Source: Candidatus Poribacteria bacterium
GTDB lineage: Bacteria > Poribacteria > WGA-4E > GCA-2687025
Length of the DNA stretch: 64,000 nucleotides
Direction of reading: 5' to 3'
Assembly (NCBI GenBank): GCA_963665845.2
Contig: OY762492.1
Span: forward strand, 1,152,001 to 1,216,000
Shown here piece after piece: positions 32,620 through 50,314 of this stretch. The notes below the pieces were generated by a model, which was given only the letters and a program-made list of their open reading frames with translations, made no database searches and was not told the origin of the DNA. The stretch's first letter is position 1. Every line of letters starts with the position of its first letter. Position numbers and translations under genes: made by a program.

Positions 32620-32739
32620 GCCGCTTCCGCGGGGGCATGCGTTCCCGCCCCTTCGGTGAAACGCGCGGGAATCTAGAGGCGTCGCAGAAACCGCCCGCGT
32701 TCGCCCGCCGCCATGTCCCAACTTAAGACGTGAGGTCAG
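32620..32739. mobile_element. Partial MITE family A copy (reverse orientation)
   Basis: Ends in atgtcccaacttaagacgtgaggtcag. Confidence 0.75.
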
Positions 32740-32798
32740 AGGATAGATTGACAATCCAAGCGTATGGAGTATCATGCGTTAATGATAGGAGGAACGCC

Positions 32799-33842
32799 AT
32801 GAAAATCGCCATTGTCGGAGCGACCAGTTACACCAGCGTCGAATTGATACGCCTGCTCGCCGCGCATCCGGGCGGGATCGATCTTGCCGTTCTCACCTCG
32901 CGCACCGAAGCGGGCCGCCCCATCGTCGACTTCGCGCCGAACCTGCGCGGATACTGCGATTTGACGCTGGAGACGACCGCCGTTGAGACGCTGACAGGGC
33001 GCGTTGACGCCGCCGTACTTGCCGTCCCGCACCGCGCCGCGATGGAGTACGCCCCCGCGCTGCTGAACGAAGGCGTCCGCGTCCTGGATTTCAGCGCCGA
33101 CTACCGCCTCAAAGAGGTCTCCACCTATGAACGCTGGTACGACGCCGAGCATACCAGCCCCGAGCTGCTGCCGTCCGCCGTGTACGGTTTGCCGGAACTG
33201 TACCGTCAGAAAATCGCCGGCGCGGACCTTGTCGCCAATCCTGGCTGTTACCCGACGAGCGCCGTTTTTGCGTTACTTCCCGCCGTCGAGGAGCGTATGA
33301 TCGACATGGGCGGGATTGTTGTCGACTCGAAGTCTGGGCTGTCGGGCGCGGGGCGCAAGCTGAATGAAAAGATTCTGTTTTCGTCGCGGCAAGAAAATGT
33401 CGCCGCATACGGTATCGCCTCGCACCGCCACACGCCTGAAATGGAGCAGGAGCTGCAAGCGGCAAGCGGCAACCCTGATCTGCGCGTCGGGTTCACTCCC
33501 CATTATATGCCGATGACGCGCGGCATTCTGACGGCGGCTTATGCCCCCTTGACGCGCCCGCTTTCGCTGGAGGAGATTCATGCATTTTATGAGCGGCGCT
33601 ACGCGAATGAGCCGTTCATACAGACGCTCCCGCCGGGCGAATCCGCCGAAACGAAGGCGGTTTACGGCAGCAACAACGTCCATGTCGGCGTTGCGGTTGA
33701 TGAGCGCGTGAACAGGCTGATTGTCACGTGCGCGCTGGACAACCTCGGCAAAGGAGCCGCCGGCGCCGCGCTGCAGAACCTGAACCTGATGGCAGGGCTG
33801 GACGAGACGGCGGGGCTGCGCTTCCCGGGCGTCATGCCGTAG
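32799..33842 (+). CDS. argC: N-acetyl-gamma-glutamyl-phosphate reductase
   Basis: SADYRL, YGLPE, ANPGCYPT, SGLSGAG, HRHTPE and DNLGKGAAG motifs. Confidence 0.96.
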   Translation: MKIAIVGATSYTSVELIRLLAAHPGGIDLAVLTSRTEAGRPIVDFAPNLRGYCDLTLETTAVETLTGRVDAAVLAVPHRAAMEYAPALLNEGVRVLDFSADYRLKEVSTYERWYDAEHTSPELLPSAVYGLPELYRQKIAGADLVANPGCYPTSAVFALLPAVEERMIDMGGIVVDSKSGLSGAGRKLNEKILFSSRQENVAAYGIASHRHTPEMEQELQAASGNPDLRVGFTPHYMPMTRGILTAAYAPLTRPLSLEEIHAFYERRYANEPFIQTLPPGESAETKAVYGSNNVHVGVAVDERVNRLIVTCALDNLGKGAAGAALQNLNLMAGLDETAGLRFPGVMP

Positions 33843-33853
33843 AAAGACGCAGG

Positions 33854-35056
33854 ATGAACCTGAAAAATCGGACGCTGTTTATCGCGGACAATCTGGACAT
33901 CATGCGCGGGATCGATTCGGAGAGCGTCGACCTGATTTATCTGGACCCGCCTTTCAACAAGAAGAAGCGGTTTAAGGCGCCCATCGGATCCCCTGCTGAA
34001 GGGGCGACATTCAAGGACATTTGGACAGACGAAGACGTCAAAGAGGAATGGCGCGGAGAAATCGCTGCCCAGCATCAAGACCTGTACGGCGCAATCAAAT
34101 TGGTCGGCTCCATCTACGACGAGTCGATGGCGATCTACATGACGGCGATGTCGATCCGTCTTTTTGAAATGCAGCGCATCTTGAAAAAAACGGGCAGCGT
34201 CTATCTCCATTGCGATCCGACAGCGAGCCATTACCTGAAAATCTGCATGGACAGCATCTTCGGAAAATCCAGTTTCCAAAACGAAATCGCATGGGCTTAC
34301 CGCACAGGCGGCGTGAGTAAAAAACGATGGCCTCGAAAGCATGACACGATTCTGTTCTATGCAAGCTCGAACGCTTACCGCCATCAGCCGCCAAAGGAAA
34401 GAATCTATTACGAGAAACCGTTTTTTTCCCAAAACCAAGACGATGAAGGGCGCCATTACGCTGACGTCTATGTTCGAGACGTTTGGGACGACATTAAGCC
34501 GATTATCAACACATCCAAAGAGCGCACCGGCTGGCCGACGCAGAAGCCGCTGACGCTGTTAGAGCGCATTATCAAAGCCTCTTCGAACGAAGGGGATCTT
34601 GTGTTTGACCCGTTCTGCGGCTGCGCGACGGCATGCGTCGCCGCCGAACTTCTAGGGCGGCGTTGGGTCGGCATTGACATATCGGCCAGCGCCGAGGTGA
34701 TCACAAAATACCGCCTGGATGAGGCGCGGCATAATCTGGAAGGGACGCAAACCTTCGACCCTGAAGCGGATGTGATCGTCCTGCGCGAGCCGCCGAAGCG
34801 CACCGACATCCAGATTCCGAAGCCGATTGAACATAAACCGGCTCTCTACGGCAAACAGAACGGAGAATGCGCAGGCTGCAAGATTCATTTTCCGTATCGG
34901 AACATGACAATCGACCATATCCATCCGCGCGCTAGAGGCGGCGCCGACACGCCCGACAACTTGCAGCTGCTGTGCCACGCCTGCAACTCTGCCAAGGGAA
35001 CAGGGACGCAGGAGGAGCTGTTAGCGAAGTTGCGCGATCGGGGCGTTATTGAATAA
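33854..35056 (+). CDS. Beta-class DNA methyltransferase-HNH endonuclease fusion, copy 1
   Basis: DPPF motif IV, TQKP, DPFCGCAT motif I, then CxxC..DHIHP..GG..NLQLLCHACN. Confidence 0.9.
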   Translation: MNLKNRTLFIADNLDIMRGIDSESVDLIYLDPPFNKKKRFKAPIGSPAEGATFKDIWTDEDVKEEWRGEIAAQHQDLYGAIKLVGSIYDESMAIYMTAMSIRLFEMQRILKKTGSVYLHCDPTASHYLKICMDSIFGKSSFQNEIAWAYRTGGVSKKRWPRKHDTILFYASSNAYRHQPPKERIYYEKPFFSQNQDDEGRHYADVYVRDVWDDIKPIINTSKERTGWPTQKPLTLLERIIKASSNEGDLVFDPFCGCATACVAAELLGRRWVGIDISASAEVITKYRLDEARHNLEGTQTFDPEADVIVLREPPKRTDIQIPKPIEHKPALYGKQNGECAGCKIHFPYRNMTIDHIHPRARGGADTPDNLQLLCHACNSAKGTGTQEELLAKLRDRGVIE

Positions 35057-35068
35057 GGGAGAGCGAAC

Positions 35069-36280
35069 ATGAACCTGAAAAATCGGACGCTGTTTATCGC
35101 CGACAATCTGGACATCATGCGCGGGATCGATTCGGAGAGCGTTGACCTGATCTATCTTGACCCGCCCTTCAACACGAAGCGGGAGTATAAAGCTCCGATC
35201 GGATCGCCCGCTGAAGGCGCGACTTTCAAAGACATCTGGACAGACGAAGACGTCAAGGAAGAGTGGCGCGGGGAAATCGCTGCCCAGCATCAAGACCTGT
35301 ATGAAGTCATTAAAGCGGCGGACGCGCTCTACGATCCATCGATGTCGATCTACATGACCGCTATGGCTGTCCGTCTTTTTGAAATGAAGCGCATTTTGAA
35401 AAAAACGGGGTGCGTTTACCTGCATTGCGACCCGACAGCGAGCCACTACCTTAAGATCATTATGGACTCGATCTTCAAGGCAGGGAATTTCCAAAGCGAG
35501 GTGATATGGGGGTATCGGACGCAGGGCGTGAGCAAAGCGAGATGGCCCAGAAAGCATGATGTGCTTTTACATTACGGCGGCGGAAAGAAGCCGACCTTCC
35601 ATCCGCAGATGCAGCGACTCATCTATGAAAAGCCGTTTCGCCATACGAAAATAGACGAGGAGGGGCGGCATTATGCGGATGTGTATGTGCGGGATGTTTG
35701 GGACGACGACCCTGAAACGAAGGCTCTAATCAGCCAGTCTCTAGAGCGCACCGGCTGGCCGACGCAGAAACCGTTGGCGCTGCTGAAGCGCATTATCAAG
35801 GCGTCCTCCAACGAAGGCGATCTTGTGTTTGATCCGTTCTGCGGCTGCGCGACCGCATGCGTCGCCGCGGAGCTTCTAGGGCGGCGATGGGTCGGCATCG
35901 ATATTTCTCCAAGCGCGGAGGTCATCACGAAATACCGGCTGGACGAGGCGCGGCATAACCTGGAAGGAACGCAAACCTTCGACCCAGAAGCGGATGTGAT
36001 CGTTCTGCGCGAACCGCCGAAACGTACCGATATTCAGATTCCAAAGCCGATTGAACATAAACCGGCTCTCTACGGCAAACAGAACGGAGAATGCACAGGC
36101 TGCAAGATTCATTTTCCGTATCGGAACATGACGATCGACCATATCCATCCGCGCGCTAGAGGCGGCGCCGACACGCCCGACAACCTGCAGCTGCTGTGCC
36201 ATGCATGCAACTCGGCTAAAGGAACCGGGACCCAAGAGGAGCTGTTAGTGAAGTTGCGCGAGCGCGGCGTTATCAAATAA
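35069..36280 (+). CDS. Beta-class DNA methyltransferase-HNH fusion, copy 2
   Basis: Same architecture with a different central segment (35516-35743). Confidence 0.9.
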   Translation: MNLKNRTLFIADNLDIMRGIDSESVDLIYLDPPFNTKREYKAPIGSPAEGATFKDIWTDEDVKEEWRGEIAAQHQDLYEVIKAADALYDPSMSIYMTAMAVRLFEMKRILKKTGCVYLHCDPTASHYLKIIMDSIFKAGNFQSEVIWGYRTQGVSKARWPRKHDVLLHYGGGKKPTFHPQMQRLIYEKPFRHTKIDEEGRHYADVYVRDVWDDDPETKALISQSLERTGWPTQKPLALLKRIIKASSNEGDLVFDPFCGCATACVAAELLGRRWVGIDISPSAEVITKYRLDEARHNLEGTQTFDPEADVIVLREPPKRTDIQIPKPIEHKPALYGKQNGECTGCKIHFPYRNMTIDHIHPRARGGADTPDNLQLLCHACNSAKGTGTQEELLVKLRERGVIK

Positions 36281-36292
36281 GGGAGAGCGAAC

Positions 36293-37555
36293 ATGAACCT
36301 GAAAAATCGGACGCTGTTTATCGCCGACAATCTGGACATCATGCGCGGGATCGATTCGGAGAGCGTTGACCTGATTTATCTGGACCCGCCTTTCAACAAG
36401 AAAAAGCGGTTTAAGGCGCCCATCGGATCTCCCGCTGAAGGGGCGACATTCAAGGACATTTGGACAGACGAAGACGTCAAAGAAGAGTGGCGCGGGGAAA
36501 TCGCGTCGCGGCATCAAGACCTGTATGACAACATCCAAACGGCGGGAAAGATTTACGATCCGTCAATGGCGATCTACATGACGGCGATGTCGGTGCGCCT
36601 CTTTGAAATGCGGCGGATTTTGAAAAAGACCGGCAGCATCTACCTGCATTGCGACCAGACGGCGAACCATTACCTGAAAGTCTGTATGGACGCCATCTTC
36701 GGCAAAAACAACTTTCGCAACGAGATCATCTGGGCGTATAAGGGTCCGTCCAACGTCCGCCGCTGGTTTCCTAGAAAACATGATGTCGTCCTGTTTTATG
36801 TCAAGTCGAGAGCCGCTGCCTTCAATGCGGACGCTGTCCGCATCCCTTACAGCGAATCGTTCACTGCCAGAAGACAATACGACGAAGGCGAAGCGGGCAT
36901 CACAGCTGGCTATGCTGACGGCAGAACAGAAGAGGAAGTCTCGGAGCTGTTTGGGAATGGAAAAATTATCGAAGACTGGTGGGACGATATACCGAGCGGC
37001 GGACATATCAGCCGAAAAGAGCGCACCGGCTGGCCGACGCAGAAGCCGCTCAAGCTGTTAGACCGCGTCATCAAGGCGTCCTCCAACGAGGGCGATCTTG
37101 TGTTTGATCCGTTCTGCGGCTGCGCGACAGCATGCGTCGCCGCGGAACTTCTGGGCAGGCGTTGGGTCGGCATCGACATATCGGCCAGCGCGGAGGTGAT
37201 CACAAAATACCGCCTGGATGAGGCGCGGCATAACCTGGAAGGGACGCAAACCTTCGATCCTGAAGCGGATGTGATCGTTCTGCGCGAACCGCCGAAGCGT
37301 ACCGATATTCAGATTCCGAAGCCGATTGAACATAAACCGGCGCTCTACGGCAAACAGAACGGAGAATGCGCAGGCTGCAAGATTCATTTTCCGTATCGGA
37401 ATATGACAATTGACCATATACGCCCGCGCGCTAGAGGCGGCGTTGACACCGTCGACAACCTGCAGCTGCTGTGCCACGCCTGCAACTCCGCCAAAGGGAC
37501 CGGGACGCAGGAGGAGCTGATAGCGAAGTTGCGCGAGCGGGGCGTTATTGAATGA
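36293..37555 (+). CDS. Beta-class DNA methyltransferase-HNH fusion, copy 3
   Basis: Same architecture with a different, longer central segment (36740-37018). Confidence 0.9.
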   Translation: MNLKNRTLFIADNLDIMRGIDSESVDLIYLDPPFNKKKRFKAPIGSPAEGATFKDIWTDEDVKEEWRGEIASRHQDLYDNIQTAGKIYDPSMAIYMTAMSVRLFEMRRILKKTGSIYLHCDQTANHYLKVCMDAIFGKNNFRNEIIWAYKGPSNVRRWFPRKHDVVLFYVKSRAAAFNADAVRIPYSESFTARRQYDEGEAGITAGYADGRTEEEVSELFGNGKIIEDWWDDIPSGGHISRKERTGWPTQKPLKLLDRVIKASSNEGDLVFDPFCGCATACVAAELLGRRWVGIDISASAEVITKYRLDEARHNLEGTQTFDPEADVIVLREPPKRTDIQIPKPIEHKPALYGKQNGECAGCKIHFPYRNMTIDHIRPRARGGVDTVDNLQLLCHACNSAKGTGTQEELIAKLRERGVIE

Positions 37556-37627
37556 GCGGCGCTCAATGGACAACTGCGAGCTTTTACGTTATTCTTATGG
37601 TGTCAGGCGAAATAGAAAGGATGCAGC

Positions 37628-37933
37628 ATGGCGACCATTACGCGCGTTTCCGGCGGATTTAAGAACGATGCGCTGTCTTTGAAAATTACAAGCGGATCGT
37701 TGATTGAGTGGACAGACAGCCGCGGCGTCGGAAACTGGATCGTAGTGGAAGCGAACGGAACGCTTGAAGGCCAATGCTCATTCGGCGGCGGTCTTGGCGA
37801 TGTGAAGCTGATTTCTGAAGACAAGGTGTTTGTCGGGCAAGCGCTGATCAAACACGCGCAGATAACGCCGATGTCGACACGATTTGATCTGCTGGGAACG
37901 GACGATCTTGTACGTCAAAGGCTGGAGCCGTGA
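37628..37933 (+). CDS. Hypothetical 101-aa protein inside the MTase-HNH array
   Basis: Upstream AAGGA; its stop overlaps the start of copy 4 (GTGA). Confidence 0.6.
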   Translation: MATITRVSGGFKNDALSLKITSGSLIEWTDSRGVGNWIVVEANGTLEGQCSFGGGLGDVKLISEDKVFVGQALIKHAQITPMSTRFDLLGTDDLVRQRLEP

Positions 37934-39150
37934 ATCTCAAAAATCGCACGCTGTTTATCGCCGACAATCTGGACATCATGCGCGGGATCGATTCCGAAAG
38001 CGTTGACCTGATTTATCTTGACCCGCCCTTCAACACGAAACGGGAGTATAAAGCCCCCATCGGATCGCCCGCTGAAGGCGCGACTTTCAAAGACATTTGG
38101 ACAGACGAAGACGTCAAAGAAGAATGGCGCGGAGAGATCGCGTCGCGGCATCAGGATTTATACGAAGCCATCAAAGCGACCGAGACGATTTACGACAGGT
38201 CAATGGCGATCTACATGACCTCCATGTCGATCCGTCTTTTTGAGATGCGGCGCATCTTGAAAGATACGGGAAGCATTTACCTGCATTGCGACCCGACAGC
38301 GAGCCACTACCTCAAAACATGCATGGACAGCATTTTTGGAAAATCCAATTTCCGAAATGAGATCGTGTGGTGGTACTACAATGTCGCCGTCACCAGCAAA
38401 AAATTCTACGGCAGAAAGCACGACATCATCTTATTCTACTCAAAGAAATCGAACTGGACATTCAATCCTGACAGCGTCCGCGTTCCTTACGCGGAGGACA
38501 GCAACTGGGTCAAAAATGCGGAAAGCTACGGAGACGAGCGGTATAAGCCAGACGAGAGAGGAAAATTGTCGTCCGACGTTTTTGCGATTCCAACCATAAA
38601 CAACATGGCTAAAGAGCGCACGGGTTGGCCGACTCAAAAGCCGTTGGCTCTTTTGGATCGGATCATCAAAGCGTCCTCCAAAGAAGGCGATTATGTGTTC
38701 GATCCGTTTTGCGGCTGCGCGACAGCATGCGTCGCCGCGGAACTTCTGGGCAGGCGGTGGGTCGGCATCGACATCTCCCCCAGCGCGGAGGTGATCACAA
38801 AATACCGCTTAGACGAAGCCCGCCATACGCTGGAAGGAACGCAGACCTTCGACCCTGAAGCGGATGTCATCGTCCTGCGCGAACCGCCGAAACGAACCGA
38901 CATCAAAGAGCCTCGCCCCGCCGATTTCAAACCGCAGCTCTACAGTAAGCAGAACGGAGAATGCACAGGCTGCAGGATTCATTTTCCGTATCGGAACATG
39001 ACGATAGACCATATCCGCGCAAAGTCGAGGGGCGGGCCGGACACCGTCGACAACCTGCAGCTGCTTTGCCACGCCTGTAACTCCGCCAAAGGGACCGGGA
39101 CGCAGGAGGAGCTGTTAGCGAAGTTGCGAGAGCGCGGCGTTATCGAATAA
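37930..39150 (+). CDS. Beta-class DNA methyltransferase-HNH fusion, copy 4
   Basis: Same architecture; central segment 38377-38613. Confidence 0.9.
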   Translation: MNLKNRTLFIADNLDIMRGIDSESVDLIYLDPPFNTKREYKAPIGSPAEGATFKDIWTDEDVKEEWRGEIASRHQDLYEAIKATETIYDRSMAIYMTSMSIRLFEMRRILKDTGSIYLHCDPTASHYLKTCMDSIFGKSNFRNEIVWWYYNVAVTSKKFYGRKHDIILFYSKKSNWTFNPDSVRVPYAEDSNWVKNAESYGDERYKPDERGKLSSDVFAIPTINNMAKERTGWPTQKPLALLDRIIKASSKEGDYVFDPFCGCATACVAAELLGRRWVGIDISPSAEVITKYRLDEARHTLEGTQTFDPEADVIVLREPPKRTDIKEPRPADFKPQLYSKQNGECTGCRIHFPYRNMTIDHIRAKSRGGPDTVDNLQLLCHACNSAKGTGTQEELLAKLRERGVIE

Positions 39151-39279: not shown

Positions 39280-39744
39280 ATGTGGGTGGTAAAAGAGGAT
39301 AAAGTTCATCTTTACTTTGTGGTATGGAATTCTCATATCCAGATCGCGGAGGACAACAACGCAAAACATGGGCGATCCGACAGCGCATTCGATTACGCCT
39401 TGAGAGAAATTCCAGGCATTGAACATCATGATGGGAGTCATGACGTTACCGCTGCATATCCGTTCTCTGATGGGGAACTCGTTCACGGAGAACGCTTAAA
39501 GGCATGGCTCAAAGCAGAAAGAGACGGCGACGATGTTGGTCCGATCGTTGTCGATATTACGAAGGATGGCAACGAGTGGAAAGCGGAGATTATTAACTTT
39601 GAACCTGACGCGGATGGAAGTCGCAGCAAAATCTATGGCAACAGAAGAAATACAAGCGACGATCCGCAAAGAGGTAGGAATAATTTAATAAGATTTTTGG
39701 AAGAATTAGCGGAAATAAAGCGAAATCAGAATGAACGCAGCTGA
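39280..39744 (+). CDS. Hypothetical protein, lower GC than its flanks
   Basis: 154-aa ORF with an AAGGGG RBS; no recognisable motif. Confidence 0.6.
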   Translation: MWVVKEDKVHLYFVVWNSHIQIAEDNNAKHGRSDSAFDYALREIPGIEHHDGSHDVTAAYPFSDGELVHGERLKAWLKAERDGDDVGPIVVDITKDGNEWKAEIINFEPDADGSRSKIYGNRRNTSDDPQRGRNNLIRFLEELAEIKRNQNERS

Positions 39745-43043: not shown

Positions 43044-43121
43044 CATGAAGCCTCATCAACCGACGACTCATTATATAAGGGTTTGGCGCGGGAACGGCAA
43101 ACCCGCCCCCGCGCGCCCTCC

Positions 43122-43198
43122 TGTCATTCCCGCGTAAGCGGGAATCTAGAGACTGACCCGAACCGATCAAATCTCCAACCCCTTTCAAGTGGGGGATC
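43122..43198. repeat. ATTCCC-N8-GGGAAT palindrome plus a CCCCTTTCAAGTGGGG unit between convergent genes
   Basis: Direct inspection. Confidence 0.7.
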
Positions 43199-43207
43199 CG
43201 CTATGTC

Positions 43208-46200
43208 CTATTTCAACACAATCATGCGCCGAAGCCCCGTGAACGAACCCGCCTCAATGCGGACATAATAAATGCCGCTGGCGACAGGTTCGCCCAGGCT
43301 GTTCCGTCCGTCCCAATGGGCGGCTTTGGCGCGGCTGCGGTAGGCGCCCGCCGGCAACTGCCCAAGCTCCAACACGCGCACGGTTTGACCTGACGAGTTG
43401 TAGATCGTCACCCTCACGCGGCTTGAATCTGTCAACTCAAACGGGATCCAGGTTTCTGGGTTGAACGGGTTTGGGTAGTTCGGAAGCAGCGCCGGCTCGC
43501 TCGGTATGGCGGTCGCCAGCAGTTTGCCGATGTCCATGCGCCCCGAGGCGACAGACTCCTTGTCCAGAACGACGCGAACCGTTTGAACGCCGCCGAATGT
43601 CCCGCTCGAATCGAACACACGCAGATCAAAAGCGTCGCCGATGGCGTAGCTGTCCCCTGTCAACGCCAGAAGCGGCAGCGAGAAACGGCCAGAAATGGAG
43701 CCGCTGCCCGCCAGGTCAGACGCTGTCTGTCCAGTCTGCAGGTTCGCAATGGAAATCTCTAACCCGTTCAGCGGCGCGAGATTGTCCTCCCGCGCGACGG
43801 AACCCTCCACCACAAGAAGCGGCGTTGAGGACGGGTCGTACGCGACCGCCTCCGCGGACGCAGCGGCAGTCGCCGCGTCGTTTGACCATGCGGAGCCGTC
43901 GAAGGTCAAGACGGTTTCCGCTGCCGCCACGATAAAATAACCGTCGCCGCCCTTCGCCGCGTCGGTCGAGTCGGTGGAGAGCTGAAAAAGGGGGCTGCCG
44001 GCATCGTCATGCTTCAAGGCAATCACGGTCAGCGGAACGGTTGAAAGATCCGCCAAATCCCCGATGGTCTCAACGGCGCCGGCGCGCGTGACGCCGATCA
44101 TATTGATGCCGGCGCGCAGCGGAACTTCAGGCTTCAAAAGGCCGCCCATGAACGTGACCGACTTGGAATTCTTCATACTCACAAGCGCGCCCGCATGATC
44201 CAACAACGCCATTTCGCCAGCGGGGCCTGGAATGCCGGTGTAAGCGGCAAATTGTCCGTCTAGTTTCTGCGTCAGAATGTAGAGAACATCGCCGCTCCCG
44301 CCCAGCTTGTTGTACAGGTCGCCAACATTCTTTAAGCCGTCCACCTTCACAGGAACATGGATCAGATTCAACCCCTTTTTGAGCTGAAGCGTAAAGGAAG
44401 TCGTAGGCGCAAGTTCAACGAAGTAAATTTTTGTGACGCTTTCATTTCCATCAGCGGCGTTGTCCGGAATGATGACAATGACAATGCCTGAGCTGGACGG
44501 CGCAATTGTCGCTGTGTAGGAAGCGCCGGAGCCTGCGAACTCGGTTACGGTCCCGTTGACCACATCAATATCCGACTCTTCGAAGCCCGCGACCGCCTGA
44601 CTGAATTCGATCTCCAATTCAAATGGACCTGTTTGCGCCCCGCTCGGACCGGAGACGGTCACAGTTGGGCGGGCTGCAGGAACTTCAATGTCGCTGATGT
44701 CCCAGATCCGAATCGTGTTGTCGTCGCTGCCGCTGGCAAGCGACTGACCATCCGGTGAATACGCCACGGAACTGACACTACCCGTATGCCCTTGGAGGGT
44801 TCGTATCAGCGCTCCCGTGTTGGCGTTCCAGATGCGTATCTCGTTAAAGCTGCCGCCGGCGATGGTCTGACCATCCGGTGAATACGCCACGGAAGCGATC
44901 AAATGCCCATGTCCTTGGAGGGTTCGTATCAGCGCTCCCGTGTTGGCGTTCCAGATGCGGATCGTGTCGCTGCCGCTGGCGATGGTCTGACCATCCGGTG
45001 AATACGCCACAGAAAAGACCGAAATCGTATGTCGGATGGTTCTGATATGCGCTCCCGTGTTGGCGTTCCAGATCCGAACCGTGTTGTCTCTGCTGCCGCT
45101 GGCGATCGTCTGGCCATCCGGTGAATATGCCACAGAAAAGACATCACCAATACGCTCTGAAAGCCTTCGTATCTGCGCTCCCGTGTTGGCGTTCCAGATA
45201 CGTATCGTGTCGTCATAGTCGCCGCTGGCGATCGTCTGACCATCCGGTGAATACGCCACAGAAAAGACCCAACTCGTATGTCCCTGGAGGGTTCGTATCT
45301 GCGCTCCTGTGTTGGCGTTCCAGATCCGAACCGTGGAGTCGTAGCTGCCGCTGGCGAGCGACTGACCGCCCGGAGAATACGCCACAGAACTGACCCAATA
45401 CGTATGTCCCTGGAGGGTTCGTATCTGCGCTCCTGTGTTGGCGTTCCAGATCCGAATCGTGTTGTCAAGGCTGCCGCTGGCGAGCGACTGACCATCCGGT
45501 GAATACGCCACAGACAAGACTGCAGCCGTATGTCCTGTAAGGACCCGCGGCCCTCCGGTATCAGCGTTGACAGAGTAGGAGTTGGAAGCGGTGTTGTTCC
45601 CCGCGGCGTTGGCGGGGACGCTCACTGTAACGGTTCCGGAGCTGGACGGCTGAATCGTCGCCGTGTAGCTTGCGCCGCTGACGGCAAGGTCGATCACCGA
45701 GCCGTTCGTCACAACGATGTCGGACGACGTGAAACCTGTGACGGCGGAGCTGAACGCGATCGTCACATTGAACGCGCCTGTTTGCGTCCCGCTCGGACCG
45801 GAGACGGTCACAGTTGGGCGGGCTGCAGGAACTTCAATGTCGCTGATGTCCCAGAGGCGTATCGTCCTGTGGCCGTCCCCGCTGGCGAGCGACTGACCAT
45901 CCGGCGCATACGCTACGGAATTGACATCTCCCGCATGACCTGTAAGCGTTCGTATGTGCGCGCCAGTGTTGGCGTTCCAGATGCGTATCTTGGCGTCGTA
46001 GCCGCCGCTGGCGATCGTCTGACCATCCGGTGAATACGCCACAGACCTGACCCCATCCGTATGCCCTGTAAGCGTTCGTATCTGCGCTCCCGTGTTGGTG
46101 TTCCAGATGCGTATGCCTCTCCAGTTGCCGCTGGCGATCGTTTGACCATCCGGTGAATACGCCACAGAATAGACAGCAATCGTATCTCCTGTCAGCGTTC

Positions 46201-49200
46201 GTATCAGCGCTCCCGTGTTGGCGTTCCAGATGCGTATCGCGCCGTCATAGCTGCCGCTGGCGATCGTTTGACCATCCGGTGAATAAGCCACGGAACTGAC
46301 ACCATTCGTATGCCCTGTCAGCGTTCGTATCAGCGCTCCCGTGCTGGCGTTCCAGATGCGCATCGTGTTGTCGCGGCTGCCGCTGGCGATGGTCTGACCA
46401 TCCGGTGAATACGCCACGGAAAGGACCCGATCTGTATGTCCCTGGATGGTTCGTATCTGCGCGCCTGTGCTGGCGTTCCAGATGCGTATCCTGCCTCCCC
46501 AGCTGCCGCTGGCGATCGTCTGGCCGTCCGGTGAATACGCCACGGACGAGACACCAGACGTATGCCCTGTCAGCTCTCGTATCTGCGCTCCCGTGTTGGG
46601 GTTCCATATGCGTATCGAGCTGCTGGAGCTGGCGAGCGACTGACCATCCGGTGAATACGTCACGGAAAAGACACCGCCGTTATGGGCTGTCCAGACTCGC
46701 GGCCCTCCGGTTTCAGCGTTGACAGAGTAGGCGCTGGAGGCGGTGTTGTTCCCCGCGGCGTTGGCGGGAACTCTCACTGTAACGGCTCCGGAGCTGGACG
46801 GCTGAATCGTCGCCGTGTAGGATGCGCCGCTGCCGGTCAAGCTTGTCACGGAGCCGTTCGTCACAACGATGTCGGACGACGTGAAACCTGTGACGGCGGA
46901 GCTGAACGCGATCGTCACATTGAACGCGCCTGTTTGCGTACCGCTCGGACCAGACACGGTTGCCGTTGGGCGGGCTGCAGGAACTTCAATGTCGCTGATG
47001 TCCCAGATCCGAACCGTGTTGTCGTCGCTGCCGCTGGCGAGCGACCGACCGTCCGGTGAATACGCCACGGTACGCGCCACAGCCGTATGCCCTGTAAGCG
47101 TTCGTATCAGCGCGCCAGTATTGGCGTTCCAGATCTGTACTATACCTCCCCCACTGTTGCTGCCCCCGCCGCCGGCGATCGTCTGACCGTCCGGAGAATA
47201 CGTCACAGAAAAGACAGCTCTATGCTGTTGAGTTTGGAGATGCGCTCCCGTGTTGGCGTTCCAGATGCGGATCGGCGGGTTGCCGCCGCTGCCGCTGACG
47301 ATCGTCTGACCATCCGGCGCATACGCCACGGACAAGACATTGCCCGTATGTCCTGAAAGCGTTCGTATCTGCGCGCCAGTGTTGGCGTTCCAGATGCGGA
47401 TCGCGGCGTCGTAGTCGCTGCTGGCGATCGTCTGACCATCCGGCGCATACGCCACGGAACTGACCCAATCCGTATGTCCCTGAAGGGTTCGTATCAGCGC
47501 TCCTGTGTTGGCGTTCCAGATGCGTATCGTGTTGTCCCAGCTGCCGCTGGCGATGGTCTGACCATCCGGAGAATACGCCACGGAACTGATGTGACTTGTA
47601 TGCCCTTGGAGAGTTCGTATCAGCGCTCCTGTGTTGGCGTTCCAGATGCGTATCGTCTTGTCAACGCTGCCGCTGGCGATCGTCTGACCATTCGGAGAAT
47701 ACGCCACTGACATGACATAATGTGTATGCCCTGTCAGAGTTCGTATCAGCGCTCCCGTGTTGGCGTTCCAGATGCGTATCGTGCGGTCGCTGCTGGCGCT
47801 GGCGATCGTCTGACCGTTCGGTGAATACGCCACAGACACGACTCCATCCGTATGCCCTGTCAGGACCCGCGGTCCTCCGGTATCAGCGTTGGCAGAGTAG
47901 GTATTGGAAGCGGTGTTGTTCCCCGCGGCGTTGGCGGGGACGCTCACCGTAACAGTTCCGGAGCTGGACGGTTGAATCGTCGCCGTGTAGCTTGCCCCGC
48001 TGCCGGTAAAGCTTGTCACGGAGCCGTTCGTCACAACGATGTCGGACGATGTGAAATCCGTGACGGCGGAGCTGAATGAGATCGTCACATTGAACGCGCC
48101 TGTTTGCGTCCCGCTCGGACCGGAGACGGTCACAGTTGGGCGGGTTGCAGGAACTTCAATGTCGCTGATGTCCCAGATGCGTATCGTTCTGTCGCGACTG
48201 CAGCTGGCGAGCGACTGACCATTCGGCGCATACGCCACAGAAAGGACCCAATCCGTATGTCCCTGGAGGGTTCTGATATGCGCTCCTGTGTTGGCGTTCC
48301 AGATGCGTATCGTATCGTCAATGCTGCCGCTGGCGATCGTCTGACCATCCGGCGCATACGCCACAGAATTGACCCAATCAGTATGTCCCTGGAGGGTTCG
48401 TATCAGCGCTCCTGTGTTGGCGTTCCAGATGCGTATCGTATCGTCGTCGCTGCCGCTGGCGATCGTCTGACCATCCGGCGCATACGCCACGGAATAGATA
48501 AAACGCCCATGTCCTTGGAGGGTTCTGATATGCGCTCCTGTGTTGGCGTTCCAGATCCGGATCGTGTTGTCAAGGCTGCCGCTGGCGAGCGACTGACCAT
48601 CCGGCGCATACGCCGCGGACCTGACCACACCCGTATGCCCTGTAAGCGTTCGTATCAGCGCGCCAGTGTTGGCGTTCCAGATCCGAACCGTGTTGTCGTA
48701 TCTGCCGCTGGCGATCGTCTGACCATCCGGTGAATACGCCACAGAACTGACCCGAACTGTATGCCCCTGGAGGGTTTGTATATGCGCTCCCGTGTTGGCG
48801 TTCCAGATCCGGATCGTGTTGTCAAGGCTGCCGCTGGCGATCGACTGACCATCCGGCGCATACGCCACAGACAAGACATAATCCGTATGCCCTTGGAGGG
48901 TTCGTATATGCGCGCCAGTGTTGGCGTTCCAGATGCGTATCGTGTTGTCCCAGCCGCTGCTGGCGATCGTCTGACCGTTCGGTGAATACGCCACAGACAC
49001 GACTCCATCCGTATGCCCTGTCAGGACCCGCGGCCCTCCGGTTTCAGCGTTGACAGAGTAGGTATTGGAAGCGGTGTTGTTCCCCGCGGCGTTGGCGGGG
49101 ACGCTCACCGTAACGGCTCCGGAGCTGGATGGCTGAATGGTCGCCGTGTAGCTGGCGCCGCTGCCGGTCAAGCTTGTCACGGAGCCGTTTGTCACAGTGA

Positions 49201-50314
49201 TGTCGGACGACGTGAAACCTGTGACGGCGGAGCTGAACGCGATCGTCACATTGAACGCGCTTGTTTGCGTCCCGCTCGGACCGGACACGGTTGCCGTTGG
49301 GGTGATGTCCCAGAGGCGTATCGTGTTGTCGCCGCCGCCGCTGGCGATCGTCTCACCATCCGGTGAATACGCCACGGAACTGATGTGACTTGTATGTCCT
49401 TGGAGGGTTCTAATATGCGCTCCTGTGCTGGCGTTCCATATCCGAATCGTGTTTTCACTGCCGCCGCTGGCGATCGTTTCACCATCCGGCGCATACGCCA
49501 CGGAATTGACGGTAAAAATCGTAGGTCCTTGGAGGGTTCGTATCAGCGCGCCTGTGTTGGCGTTCCAGAGCCGAACCGTGGAGTCCCAGCTGCCGCTGGC
49601 GAGCGTCTGACCATCCGGAGAATATGCCACGGACCAGACATCATCCCCATGCCCTGTCAGCGTTCGTATCAGCGCTCCCGTGCTGGCGTTCCAGAGCCGA
49701 ACCGTGGTGTCGTAGCCCCCGCTGGCGATTGCCTGACCATCCGGAGAATACGTCAAGGATTGGACCCGATCTGTATGTCCTGTCAGCGTTCTGATATGCG
49801 CTCCTGTGCTGGCGTTCCAGAGCCGAATCTTGGAGTCGAAGCCGCCGCTGGCGAGCGTCTGACCATCCGGTGAATACGCTAAGGACAAGACTCCGTTCGT
49901 ATGTCCTGTCAGCGTTCTGATATGCGCTCCCGTGCTGGCGTTCCAGATACGAATCGTGGATTCGTTGTCGTTGTCGCTGCCGCTGGCGATGGTCTGACCA
50001 TCCGGCGAGTACGCTACGGGTCTGACCGTACTCGTATGCCCTGTCAGCGTTCTGATATGCGCTGCTGTGTTGGCGTTCCAGATGCGAACCGTGTTGTCGT
50101 AGCTGCCGCTGGCGATGGTCTGACCATCCGGCGAATACGCCACGGACACTACAACACCTGTATGCCCTGTCAGGACCTGTTGCGCGCTGCTGTTTTCAGC
50201 AACGAGGCAGACGCTCAGAAGCGCAGCCGCTAGGACAGCGGACCAAGCGGGGGTTACGTCACGTGTGAATTTCATGTGCGCGACACTCTTGATGTTGAAT
50301 CTGTGGAACCTCAT
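43208..50314 (-). CDS. Giant probably secreted protein: 5 x (7-blade WD40 propeller + Ig-like domain) plus a C-terminal FlgD-Ig/sorting-like domain
   Basis: 35 repeats of [30 protein letters not shown] and five VSGPSG.QT..F Ig-like modules. Signal-peptide-like N-terminus and C-terminal [27 protein letters not shown]. The start may be 50275. Confidence 0.92.

Follow-up and report, generated by a model that had tools for sequence, protein, structure and literature searches.

A tandem array of four methyltransferase–HNH genes in a Candidatus Poribacteria genome is a mosaic probably built by homologous recombination

Four complete, co-oriented genes, each fusing a beta-class DNA methyltransferase to an HNH nuclease domain, lie between argC and a 2-hydroxyacid dehydrogenase gene in a 64,000-nucleotide stretch of a Candidatus Poribacteria genome (assembly GCA_963665845.2, contig OY762492.1, positions 1,152,001 to 1,216,000), hereafter the window. 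The window corresponds to 1.152–1.216 Mb of contig C1 (3.95 Mb) in the source genome (~4 Mb, 90% complete), and the host is probably a sponge symbiont; one sequencing run that contains part of the window is a sponge metagenome. A first-pass annotation had proposed that variants shared among the four paralogs change partners along the gene through recombination or gene conversion. We find that the patchwork is real and that recombination explains it, and orthologs from other genomes settle the question. In our full reading, to which we give a probability of roughly three in four, the four genes combine pieces of one another with alleles of other strains, RecA-type homologous recombination within conserved stretches being the likely cause, and each is predicted to encode a one-protein restriction–modification (R-M) enzyme with its own target sequence.

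The decisive evidence comes from G001, one other genome of the same genus, and from an ortholog set of ten proteins from other assemblies that carry the same four target recognition domains (TRDs 1 to 4, one per copy). G001 has one gene where the source genome has four, between the same neighbours; this gene has the left junction of copy 1 and the right junction of copy 4, and the bases downstream of it match those after copy 4. Along its length, its closest relative changes. Relative to copy 2, the G001 gene is 92–97% identical in windows starting at codons 21–61 and 87–88% identical at codons 71–81; relative to copy 1, it is 65–88% identical over codons 21–81 and 88–98% identical from codon 91 through the TRD. 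Copy 1 is composite as well. Its residues 1–100 show only 2 differences from the TRD3 genes P0007 and P0127 but 13 from its own TRD1 ortholog P0002, from which it differs at 1 position over residues 101–147 and at 4 over the TRD. Copy 3, for its part, has 9 amino acid differences from its TRD3 orthologs over residues 71–100.

Breakpoints were located with a scripted test modelled on MaxChi; tests modelled on the pairwise homoplasy index (PHI) and approximately unbiased (AU) topology tests were scripted likewise. At the nucleotide level, copy 1 switches from copy-3-like to G001-like sequence near codons 80–85, and the G001 gene switches from copy-2-like to copy-1-like near codon 97. Both breakpoints reached p = 0.0005, the floor of 2000 permutations, with all sites and with third positions alone. 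With 14 proteins, AU tests rejected all six cross-region topologies (p 0.026 to 1e-5), and the PHI-like test gave p <1e-4 on 65 informative flank sites. A further combination was found in sequencing run X3, where a contig joins a copy-3-like upstream block to TRD1. Three N-terminal blocks are paired with TRD1 (those of copy 1, G001/P0002 and the X3 contig) and two with TRD3. We conclude that the N-terminal block (residues 1 to ~97) has been re-paired with different TRDs in different strains, and that the middle block (~98–250, which includes the TRD) is orthologous between strains.

The HNH end follows yet another pattern. Over residues 335–400, paralogs within one genome differ by 4, 5, 7 and 1 residues, whereas the copies of the source genome differ from their same-TRD orthologs by 9–15 in nine comparisons, a count made without TRD4 genes; copy 4 has 16 differences from its ortholog and 7 from copy 3. 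QNGEC is present in all four copies and QDG[YK]C in 10 of 10 others, and HIYPRSRGG is common to P0123 (TRD2) and to P0127 and P0007 (TRD3). That the HNH region clusters by genome and not by TRD indicates gene conversion. Beside the TRD the pattern is reversed, with 11–15 differences between paralogs and 1–7 between orthologs. It follows that the copies predate the strain split and that homogenisation of the HNH end came later.

The four copies alone already carry the conflicting markers from which the annotation argued, each where it had placed them: KKKRFKAP in copies 1 and 3 against TKREYKAP in 2 and 4, with ISASAE and ECAG against ISPSAE and ECTG dividing the copies in the same way, and AAQHQ and TPDN in copies 1 and 2 against ASRHQ and TVDN in 3 and 4. 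Its claim that no single tree accommodates them is borne out by 99 two-versus-two informative nucleotide sites, which group copy 1 with copy 2 (39 sites), copy 3 (38) or copy 4 (22); the strongest block is codons 30–54, where 12 of 13 sites group copies 1 and 3. Clustering of adjacent sites gave p = 0.001 on the 99 sites, 0.005 on 65 flank sites and 0.051 on 58 sites (one per codon), and the PHI-like test gave p ~0.01 on all sites and 0.02–0.18 on flank sites. Such clustering is suggestive, not decisive. Marginal at the nucleotide level with the four copies alone, the recombination signal becomes significant once orthologs are added (PHI-like p 0.0002–0.0016 on 102 flank sites with the G001 ortholog). 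Exchange through the conserved flanks, as the annotation had supposed, is in this way backed by the orthologs of other assemblies.

Two likenesses between TRDs that had been taken as further signs of exchange are present but must be read differently. TRDs 1 and 2 do share the motif YEKPF..D.EGRHYADVYVRDVWDD; however, TRD2 occurs at 85–90% identity in distant backbones (N-terminal parts 69–76% and C-terminal parts 58–62% alike) and a TRD1-like segment is found separately, in P0038 (67%), so the likeness of the two (57% of amino acids) reflects old kinship and we rejected it as a trace of exchange within the array. FN.D.VR.PY, common to TRDs 3 and 4, was rejected on similar grounds: M1.MboII carries it too, and it is thus a generic beta-class feature. 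TRD movement of the kind known in Helicobacter is seen at other loci of the family; in the array, the TRD block stays orthologous across strains.

The wider family makes this TRD movement visible. In the source genome, 42 genes share the core; the tail is of HNH type (by pattern) in 22 and matches Mrr_cat in 12. The 42 include one near-duplicate on a small contig and one short stand-alone methyltransferase. Where both flanks of a pair of these genes are at least 80% alike (n = 54), the TRDs are <60% alike in 52 pairs. At locus L037 of G001, the flanks follow one of two source-genome genes, at C1:3761501 or C1:3444238 (82–95% nucleotide identity), and the TRD follows the other (88–98%), with sharp switches at the motifs FRNEIVW and ERLGYPTQKP. 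Two further TRDs are shared between HNH and Mrr backbones (P0036 and a copy from G068, a genome of another Poribacteria family): one pair is 80% alike in the TRD against 47% in the N-terminal part and 13% in the tail, the other 74% against 46% and 19%. TRD movement between unrelated backbones is established for the family at large, though not among the four copies. As separate observations, the gene at C1:3761501 is truncated, ending before its nuclease tail, and G001 locus L031 and the gene at C1:3444238 have orthologous TRDs that are identical at both ends and differ at ~20 central residues, which suggests exchange inside a TRD.

Tandem arrays recur as well. A second array in the source genome (C1:2,909,149–2,913,625) has three methyltransferase–Mrr copies with three TRDs and identical 14–15 bp spacers; between the same flanks, G001 (L072) has just one copy, whose TRD is of a fourth kind. 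In G068, a three-copy methyltransferase–HNH array lies in a different context (L122, C1:943369–947495); one of its copies carries TRD2 (90% to copy 2), and in the last the DH of the HNH domain reads DR, possibly at the cost of its nuclease activity. Of 81 genomes of the class, 37 have strong matches (E <=1e-60), with a patchy spread among families; the scan scored 23 candidates per genome, and its counts are not copy numbers. A metagenome scan returned 13 loci, none closer than 58%, and a genome scan 20 loci, one of them close (L082, a 92% identical protein). No close mobile carrier was found in phage and plasmid collections, where matches were <60% identical and 1 of 357 and 1 of 648 records cover 80% of the query.

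All four proteins look like complete enzymes. The copies are full-length, with start codons and with the catalytic motifs of both domains intact. Each has DPPF at residues 31–34, a variable segment at 148–225 and DPFCGCAT at 252–259, which is the beta-class motif order; each matches PF01555 from residue 25 to ~290 (E 1e-39 to 3e-50) and PF01844 (HNH) at the C-terminus, and the eight Zn-binding or catalytic HNH residues are complete in all four and in 112 of 117 homologs. The predicted structure of copy 1 (mean predicted local distance difference test score 81, with low confidence at residues 36–54) best matches M.BceJIV, CcrM and M1.MboII, with Foldseek E values of 2e-15 to 8urk and 4e-15 to 6pbd. 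With a predicted nuclease and a predicted methyltransferase in one polypeptide, both with intact catalytic residues, the copies have the layout that characterises Type IIC/IIG enzymes.

Three familiar labels were considered and rejected. The copies have the beta motif order, and Type IIG enzymes are exclusively class A (gamma-like) in a published classification (bioRxiv 10.1101/2023.12.13.571470). A Type III R-M system of Mod and Res would need an adjacent res gene, and no such helicase–nuclease gene was found among the neighbours (argC, two short orphan open reading frames (ORFs) and the 2-hydroxyacid dehydrogenase gene) or among 33 further long ORFs scanned in the window. Nor is this a silent-cassette conversion locus, since there are no partial donors but four full-length ORFs with start codons and intact motifs.

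The site of the KKKRFKAP/TKREYKAP dimorphism appears to be the positional equivalent of Loop-2B of CcrM, which reads three bases of the CcrM target (PMC6787082). Because the KKKRF/TKREY residues directly follow DPPF, at this Loop-2B position, re-pairing of the N-terminal block could change specificity, or be neutral. Dimerisation has been proposed as a requirement of beta-class enzymes (PMC7544214), and copies expressed together might therefore form mixed dimers.

We propose the following mechanism. RecA-dependent unequal crossing-over in the flanks, which are 80–100% alike between copies in most windows, would expand and contract the array and re-pair its blocks; recA and comEC are both present in the genome. 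Short gene conversion may keep the flanks alike and hence usable for further exchange. New TRDs would arrive from a family-wide pool that spans genera, with the conserved FRNEIxW and ERxG[WY]PTQKP at the TRD ends as candidate crossover sites for their entry. A single TRD is expected to direct both methylation and HNH cleavage, so that a swap would retarget both at once, and selection by phages or other incoming DNA may keep the TRDs different.

Could the mosaic be an artefact of assembly, a chimera of similar copies or of co-occurring strains? The genome is probably metagenome-derived, and no listed piece spans the N-terminal block of copy 1 to its TRD. However, the array lies inside a 3.95-Mb contig and its shared tracts are alike but non-identical: the longest exact run between copies is 100 bp (35052–35151, which includes spacer 1, identical to 36276–36375) and all others are <=59 bp, so the tracts are related, not pasted. 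Sequencing runs were examined as assembled contigs; X1–X5 carry a small share of the sequence words, X1–X3 were used via the pieces listed, and X4 added nothing. The pieces listed for runs X6–X8, which may be the assembly's source, match with 0 differences, one piece joining the block of copy 3 to TRD3. In run X1, which comes from a different study, the spacer junction, TRD3, the junction of copy 3, the intervening ORF and copy 4, and TRD4 are all present; fragments of all four TRDs occur in run X2. Other strains have the array too, and other assemblies are mosaic in different ways. Joints in the run contigs, among those listed, are short-sided and come mostly from other family members. We regard a chimera as very improbable, and we hold much the same view of a single duplication tree whose conflicting sites would reflect recurrent mutation at a small number of positions that tolerate change or are under selection. 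Tests restricted to synonymous sites do fail to reach significance for the four copies, and several markers are single residues (A/P, A/T); lone markers such as ISASAE/ISPSAE could fit that account. For the N-terminal block it is refuted: multi-residue blocks change partners as units, third positions alone give the same breakpoints, and orthologs show reciprocal-like pairings. A programmed shufflon, in which a site-specific recombinase switches segments at defined sites in a clonal population, is hardly credible. The phase-variable hsdS shufflons of Streptococcus pneumoniae, which the tandem variable specificity segments resemble, rely on such a recombinase and on partial cassettes. Although both loci hold several specificity segments, the array consists of whole, co-oriented genes, and its breakpoints vary between events (codons 80–85 and 97) and carry accumulated substitutions. 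The annotation was right that no recombinase is encoded near the locus: in the 90% complete genome, PF00589 tyrosine recombinases occur only at C1:1.58 and 1.85 Mb, >380 kb off, and PF00239 (resolvase) has no match.

Two further explanations invoke processes that may operate alongside recombination within the array. Uptake of DNA from other strains or species might have been the only source of the alleles, the copies inside the array never exchanging sequence. The N-terminal block of copy 1 is closer to the TRD3 genes of other strains than copy 3 is over residues 71–100 (2 versus 9 differences), TRD2 is common to other genera at 85–90%, and the uptake gene comEC is present. Import probably contributes, but it is not sufficient, and as the sole source we judge it quite improbable: a genome-specific HNH tract is present in all four copies and in no ortholog, which largely refutes it, and, because of this private tract and the 100-bp identical junction run between copies 2 and 3, transfer within the genome is needed. 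Alternatively, the HNH domain might serve mobility or addiction, cutting unmethylated DNA, with repair of the breaks driving conversion, duplication and rearrangement and the mosaicism a selfish by-product. R-M systems are mobile and have been linked to rearrangements (PMC3467074), 42 family members occupy a 4-Mb genome, and G001 family loci (L021–L075) are over-represented at synteny breaks against the source genome (8 of 11 scorable loci versus 24 of 83 control tiles, Fisher p 0.007; 12 of 23 family loci and 17 of 100 controls were unscorable). Yet homologous recombination between dispersed paralogs gives synteny breaks without nuclease action; at L067 of G001, the two flanks map beside two different source-genome paralogs, the expected outcome of such recombination. 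Mobility or addiction alone also leaves the near-universal TRD difference (52 of 54 pairs) unexplained. It can coexist with recombination among intact enzymes; as a replacement for it, we think it unlikely.

Several points weigh against the reading of the array as recombining one-protein R-M genes. Orthologs other than that of G001 are proteins only, and several are near-identical, which reduces the ten to some four or five lineages. From X3 there is a single contig, at depth 9, and the assignment of P0123 and P0127 to one genome is itself deduced. On synonymous sites of the four copies alone, site adjacency gave p 0.17 (33 flank sites) and the PHI-like test p 0.28–0.94; with five sequences, the latter was borderline on 70 third-position sites (p 0.02–0.11). 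At the C-terminal end, nucleotide breakpoint tests gave p 0.019, 0.13 and 0.51 (uncorrected), one of three below 0.05. The literature found offers no characterised model for a beta-class fusion of this kind.

The features of the array and its surroundings are collected in the table. The stop codon of the argC-like gene lies 11 bp upstream of copy 1. The identity of the 12-bp spacers at junctions 1/2 and 2/3, an earlier observation, was confirmed, and junction 3/4 has a 101-residue ORF instead, which is also found in run X1. This ORF has no Pfam, PADLOC or NCBIfam match, and its best Atlas score, 0.84, is a lead only. Scans for promoters and terminators were near chance (7 versus 3.5 and 9 versus 8.8). 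The slot after the last copy is occupied in G001 by an unrelated low-GC ORF, and neither run X2 nor run X4 covers it, which suggests a site of variable cargo.

Features of the methyltransferase–HNH array and its neighbourhood, in window coordinates
Feature	Position	Strand	Remarks
TTGACA-16-TATCAT promoter consensus	32748-32775		Consensus match only
argC-like semialdehyde dehydrogenase gene	32802..33842	+	Pfam PF01118/PF22698; left neighbour, also in G001
Copy 1, beta-class methyltransferase (DPPF ... DPFCG) + HNH	33854..35056	+	400 amino acids; TRD type 1
KKKRFKAP/TKREYKAP dimorphism site, copy 1	33959..33982	+	Immediately 3' of the catalytic DPPF motif
Copy 1 TRD (residues 148-226)	34295..34531	+	95% amino acid identity to the single G001 gene
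Copy 1 HNH domain (C339, C342, D354, H355, N369, C374, C377, N378)	34868..34987	+	PF01844; start of the tract common to all four copies
Spacer 1, 12 bp, GGGAGAGCGAAC	35057..35068	+	Junction of copies 1/2; GGAG ribosome-binding-like motif
Copy 2, methyltransferase + HNH	35069..36280	+	403 amino acids; TRD type 2; orthologs P0001, P0121-P0124, P0126
Spacer 2, identical 12 bp, GGGAGAGCGAAC	36281..36292	+	Junction of copies 2/3
Copy 3, methyltransferase + HNH	36293..37555	+	420 amino acids; TRD type 3
ORF of 101 amino acids, no family match	37628..37933	+	Between copies 3/4; 4-bp overlap with the GTG start of copy 4
Copy 4, methyltransferase + HNH	37930..39150	+	406 amino acids; GTG start; TRD type 4; divergent linker; ortholog P0128
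ORF of 154 amino acids, no family match	39280..39744	+	Downstream of the array

Some observations concern the surroundings. In run X1, the argC contig runs on for ~8.5 kb past window position 33846 in sequence unlike the array, and copies 3 and 4 are nonetheless beside the downstream gene; an insertion or rearrangement apparently parts argC from the array in this run. A REP-like palindromic repeat is found at 32624–32740, at 43087–43134 and at ~15 other sites, its 12-base core occurring 455 + 407 times genome-wide, and a synteny break with G001 coincides with the copy upstream of argC. Further downstream (43208–50314), a 2368-residue, internally repetitive protein has four WD40-like propeller blocks alternating with repeated spacer domains, plus a C-terminal tail, the domain names being assigned by eye.

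Among known systems, the Type III mod genes of Helicobacter pylori (Furuta and Kobayashi 2012, PMC3467074) offer the nearest precedent for the process. They too are beta-class, and recombination at conserved motifs on either side replaces their TRDs; a given TRD can recur in non-orthologous genes and in other taxa, and TRD and flank trees are incongruent. Their five loci are dispersed, and four have a separate, linked res gene, whereas the Poribacteria genes have a fused nuclease, no adjacent res and ~40 paralogs in one genome, with complete copies in tandem and an N-terminal block re-paired independently of the TRD. M.BceJIV, CcrM, M1.MboII and M.RsrI are closest in sequence and fold, with DPPF before the TRD and an FxG motif after it, but no matched chain extends over the HNH tail. 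Two of them, CcrM and M.BceJIV, act as orphan regulators, and the Poribacteria proteins add a helical insertion at residues ~60–110. MmeI-type enzymes have a PD-(D/E)xK nuclease at the N-terminus, unlike the Poribacteria proteins, which are beta class with a C-terminal nuclease (HNH, or Mrr-like in paralogs). A nuclease and methyltransferase in one chain, on a conserved backbone with diverse specificity, are nevertheless common to both (Type IIC/IIG/IIL, PMC2731913), and by this analogy the array proteins would function as MmeI-type enzymes do.

Recombination of this kind is already known and will not surprise specialists; here it acts on an uncharacterised enzyme layout, which recurs in tandem arrays. 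A literature search that reached few subscription journals turned up neither the fusion family nor arrays of this kind. R-M genes are enriched in sponge symbionts (PMC5649159), an enrichment that, in the literature found, consists of gene-category counts only. The locus shows how a large part of it diversifies: through fused genes, a shared pool of TRDs, and arrays that gain and lose copies and undergo conversion. Should its members be active, the family would be a rich supply of new specificities, and the four copies, with a common backbone and differing blocks, make a ready set for testing restriction, the specificity segment and mixed dimers. We further suggest, as a doubtful possibility, that the arrays are recombinase-free generators of specificity for an undescribed type of beta-class one-protein R-M, in which two DNA-reading parts, the post-DPPF loop and the TRD, are shuffled independently and mixed dimers of co-transcribed copies, whose cores are near-identical, yield more than four specificities. 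If this were true, mixed dimers together with a 42-member family would equip a single cell with a vast and recombining set of sites to methylate and to cut.

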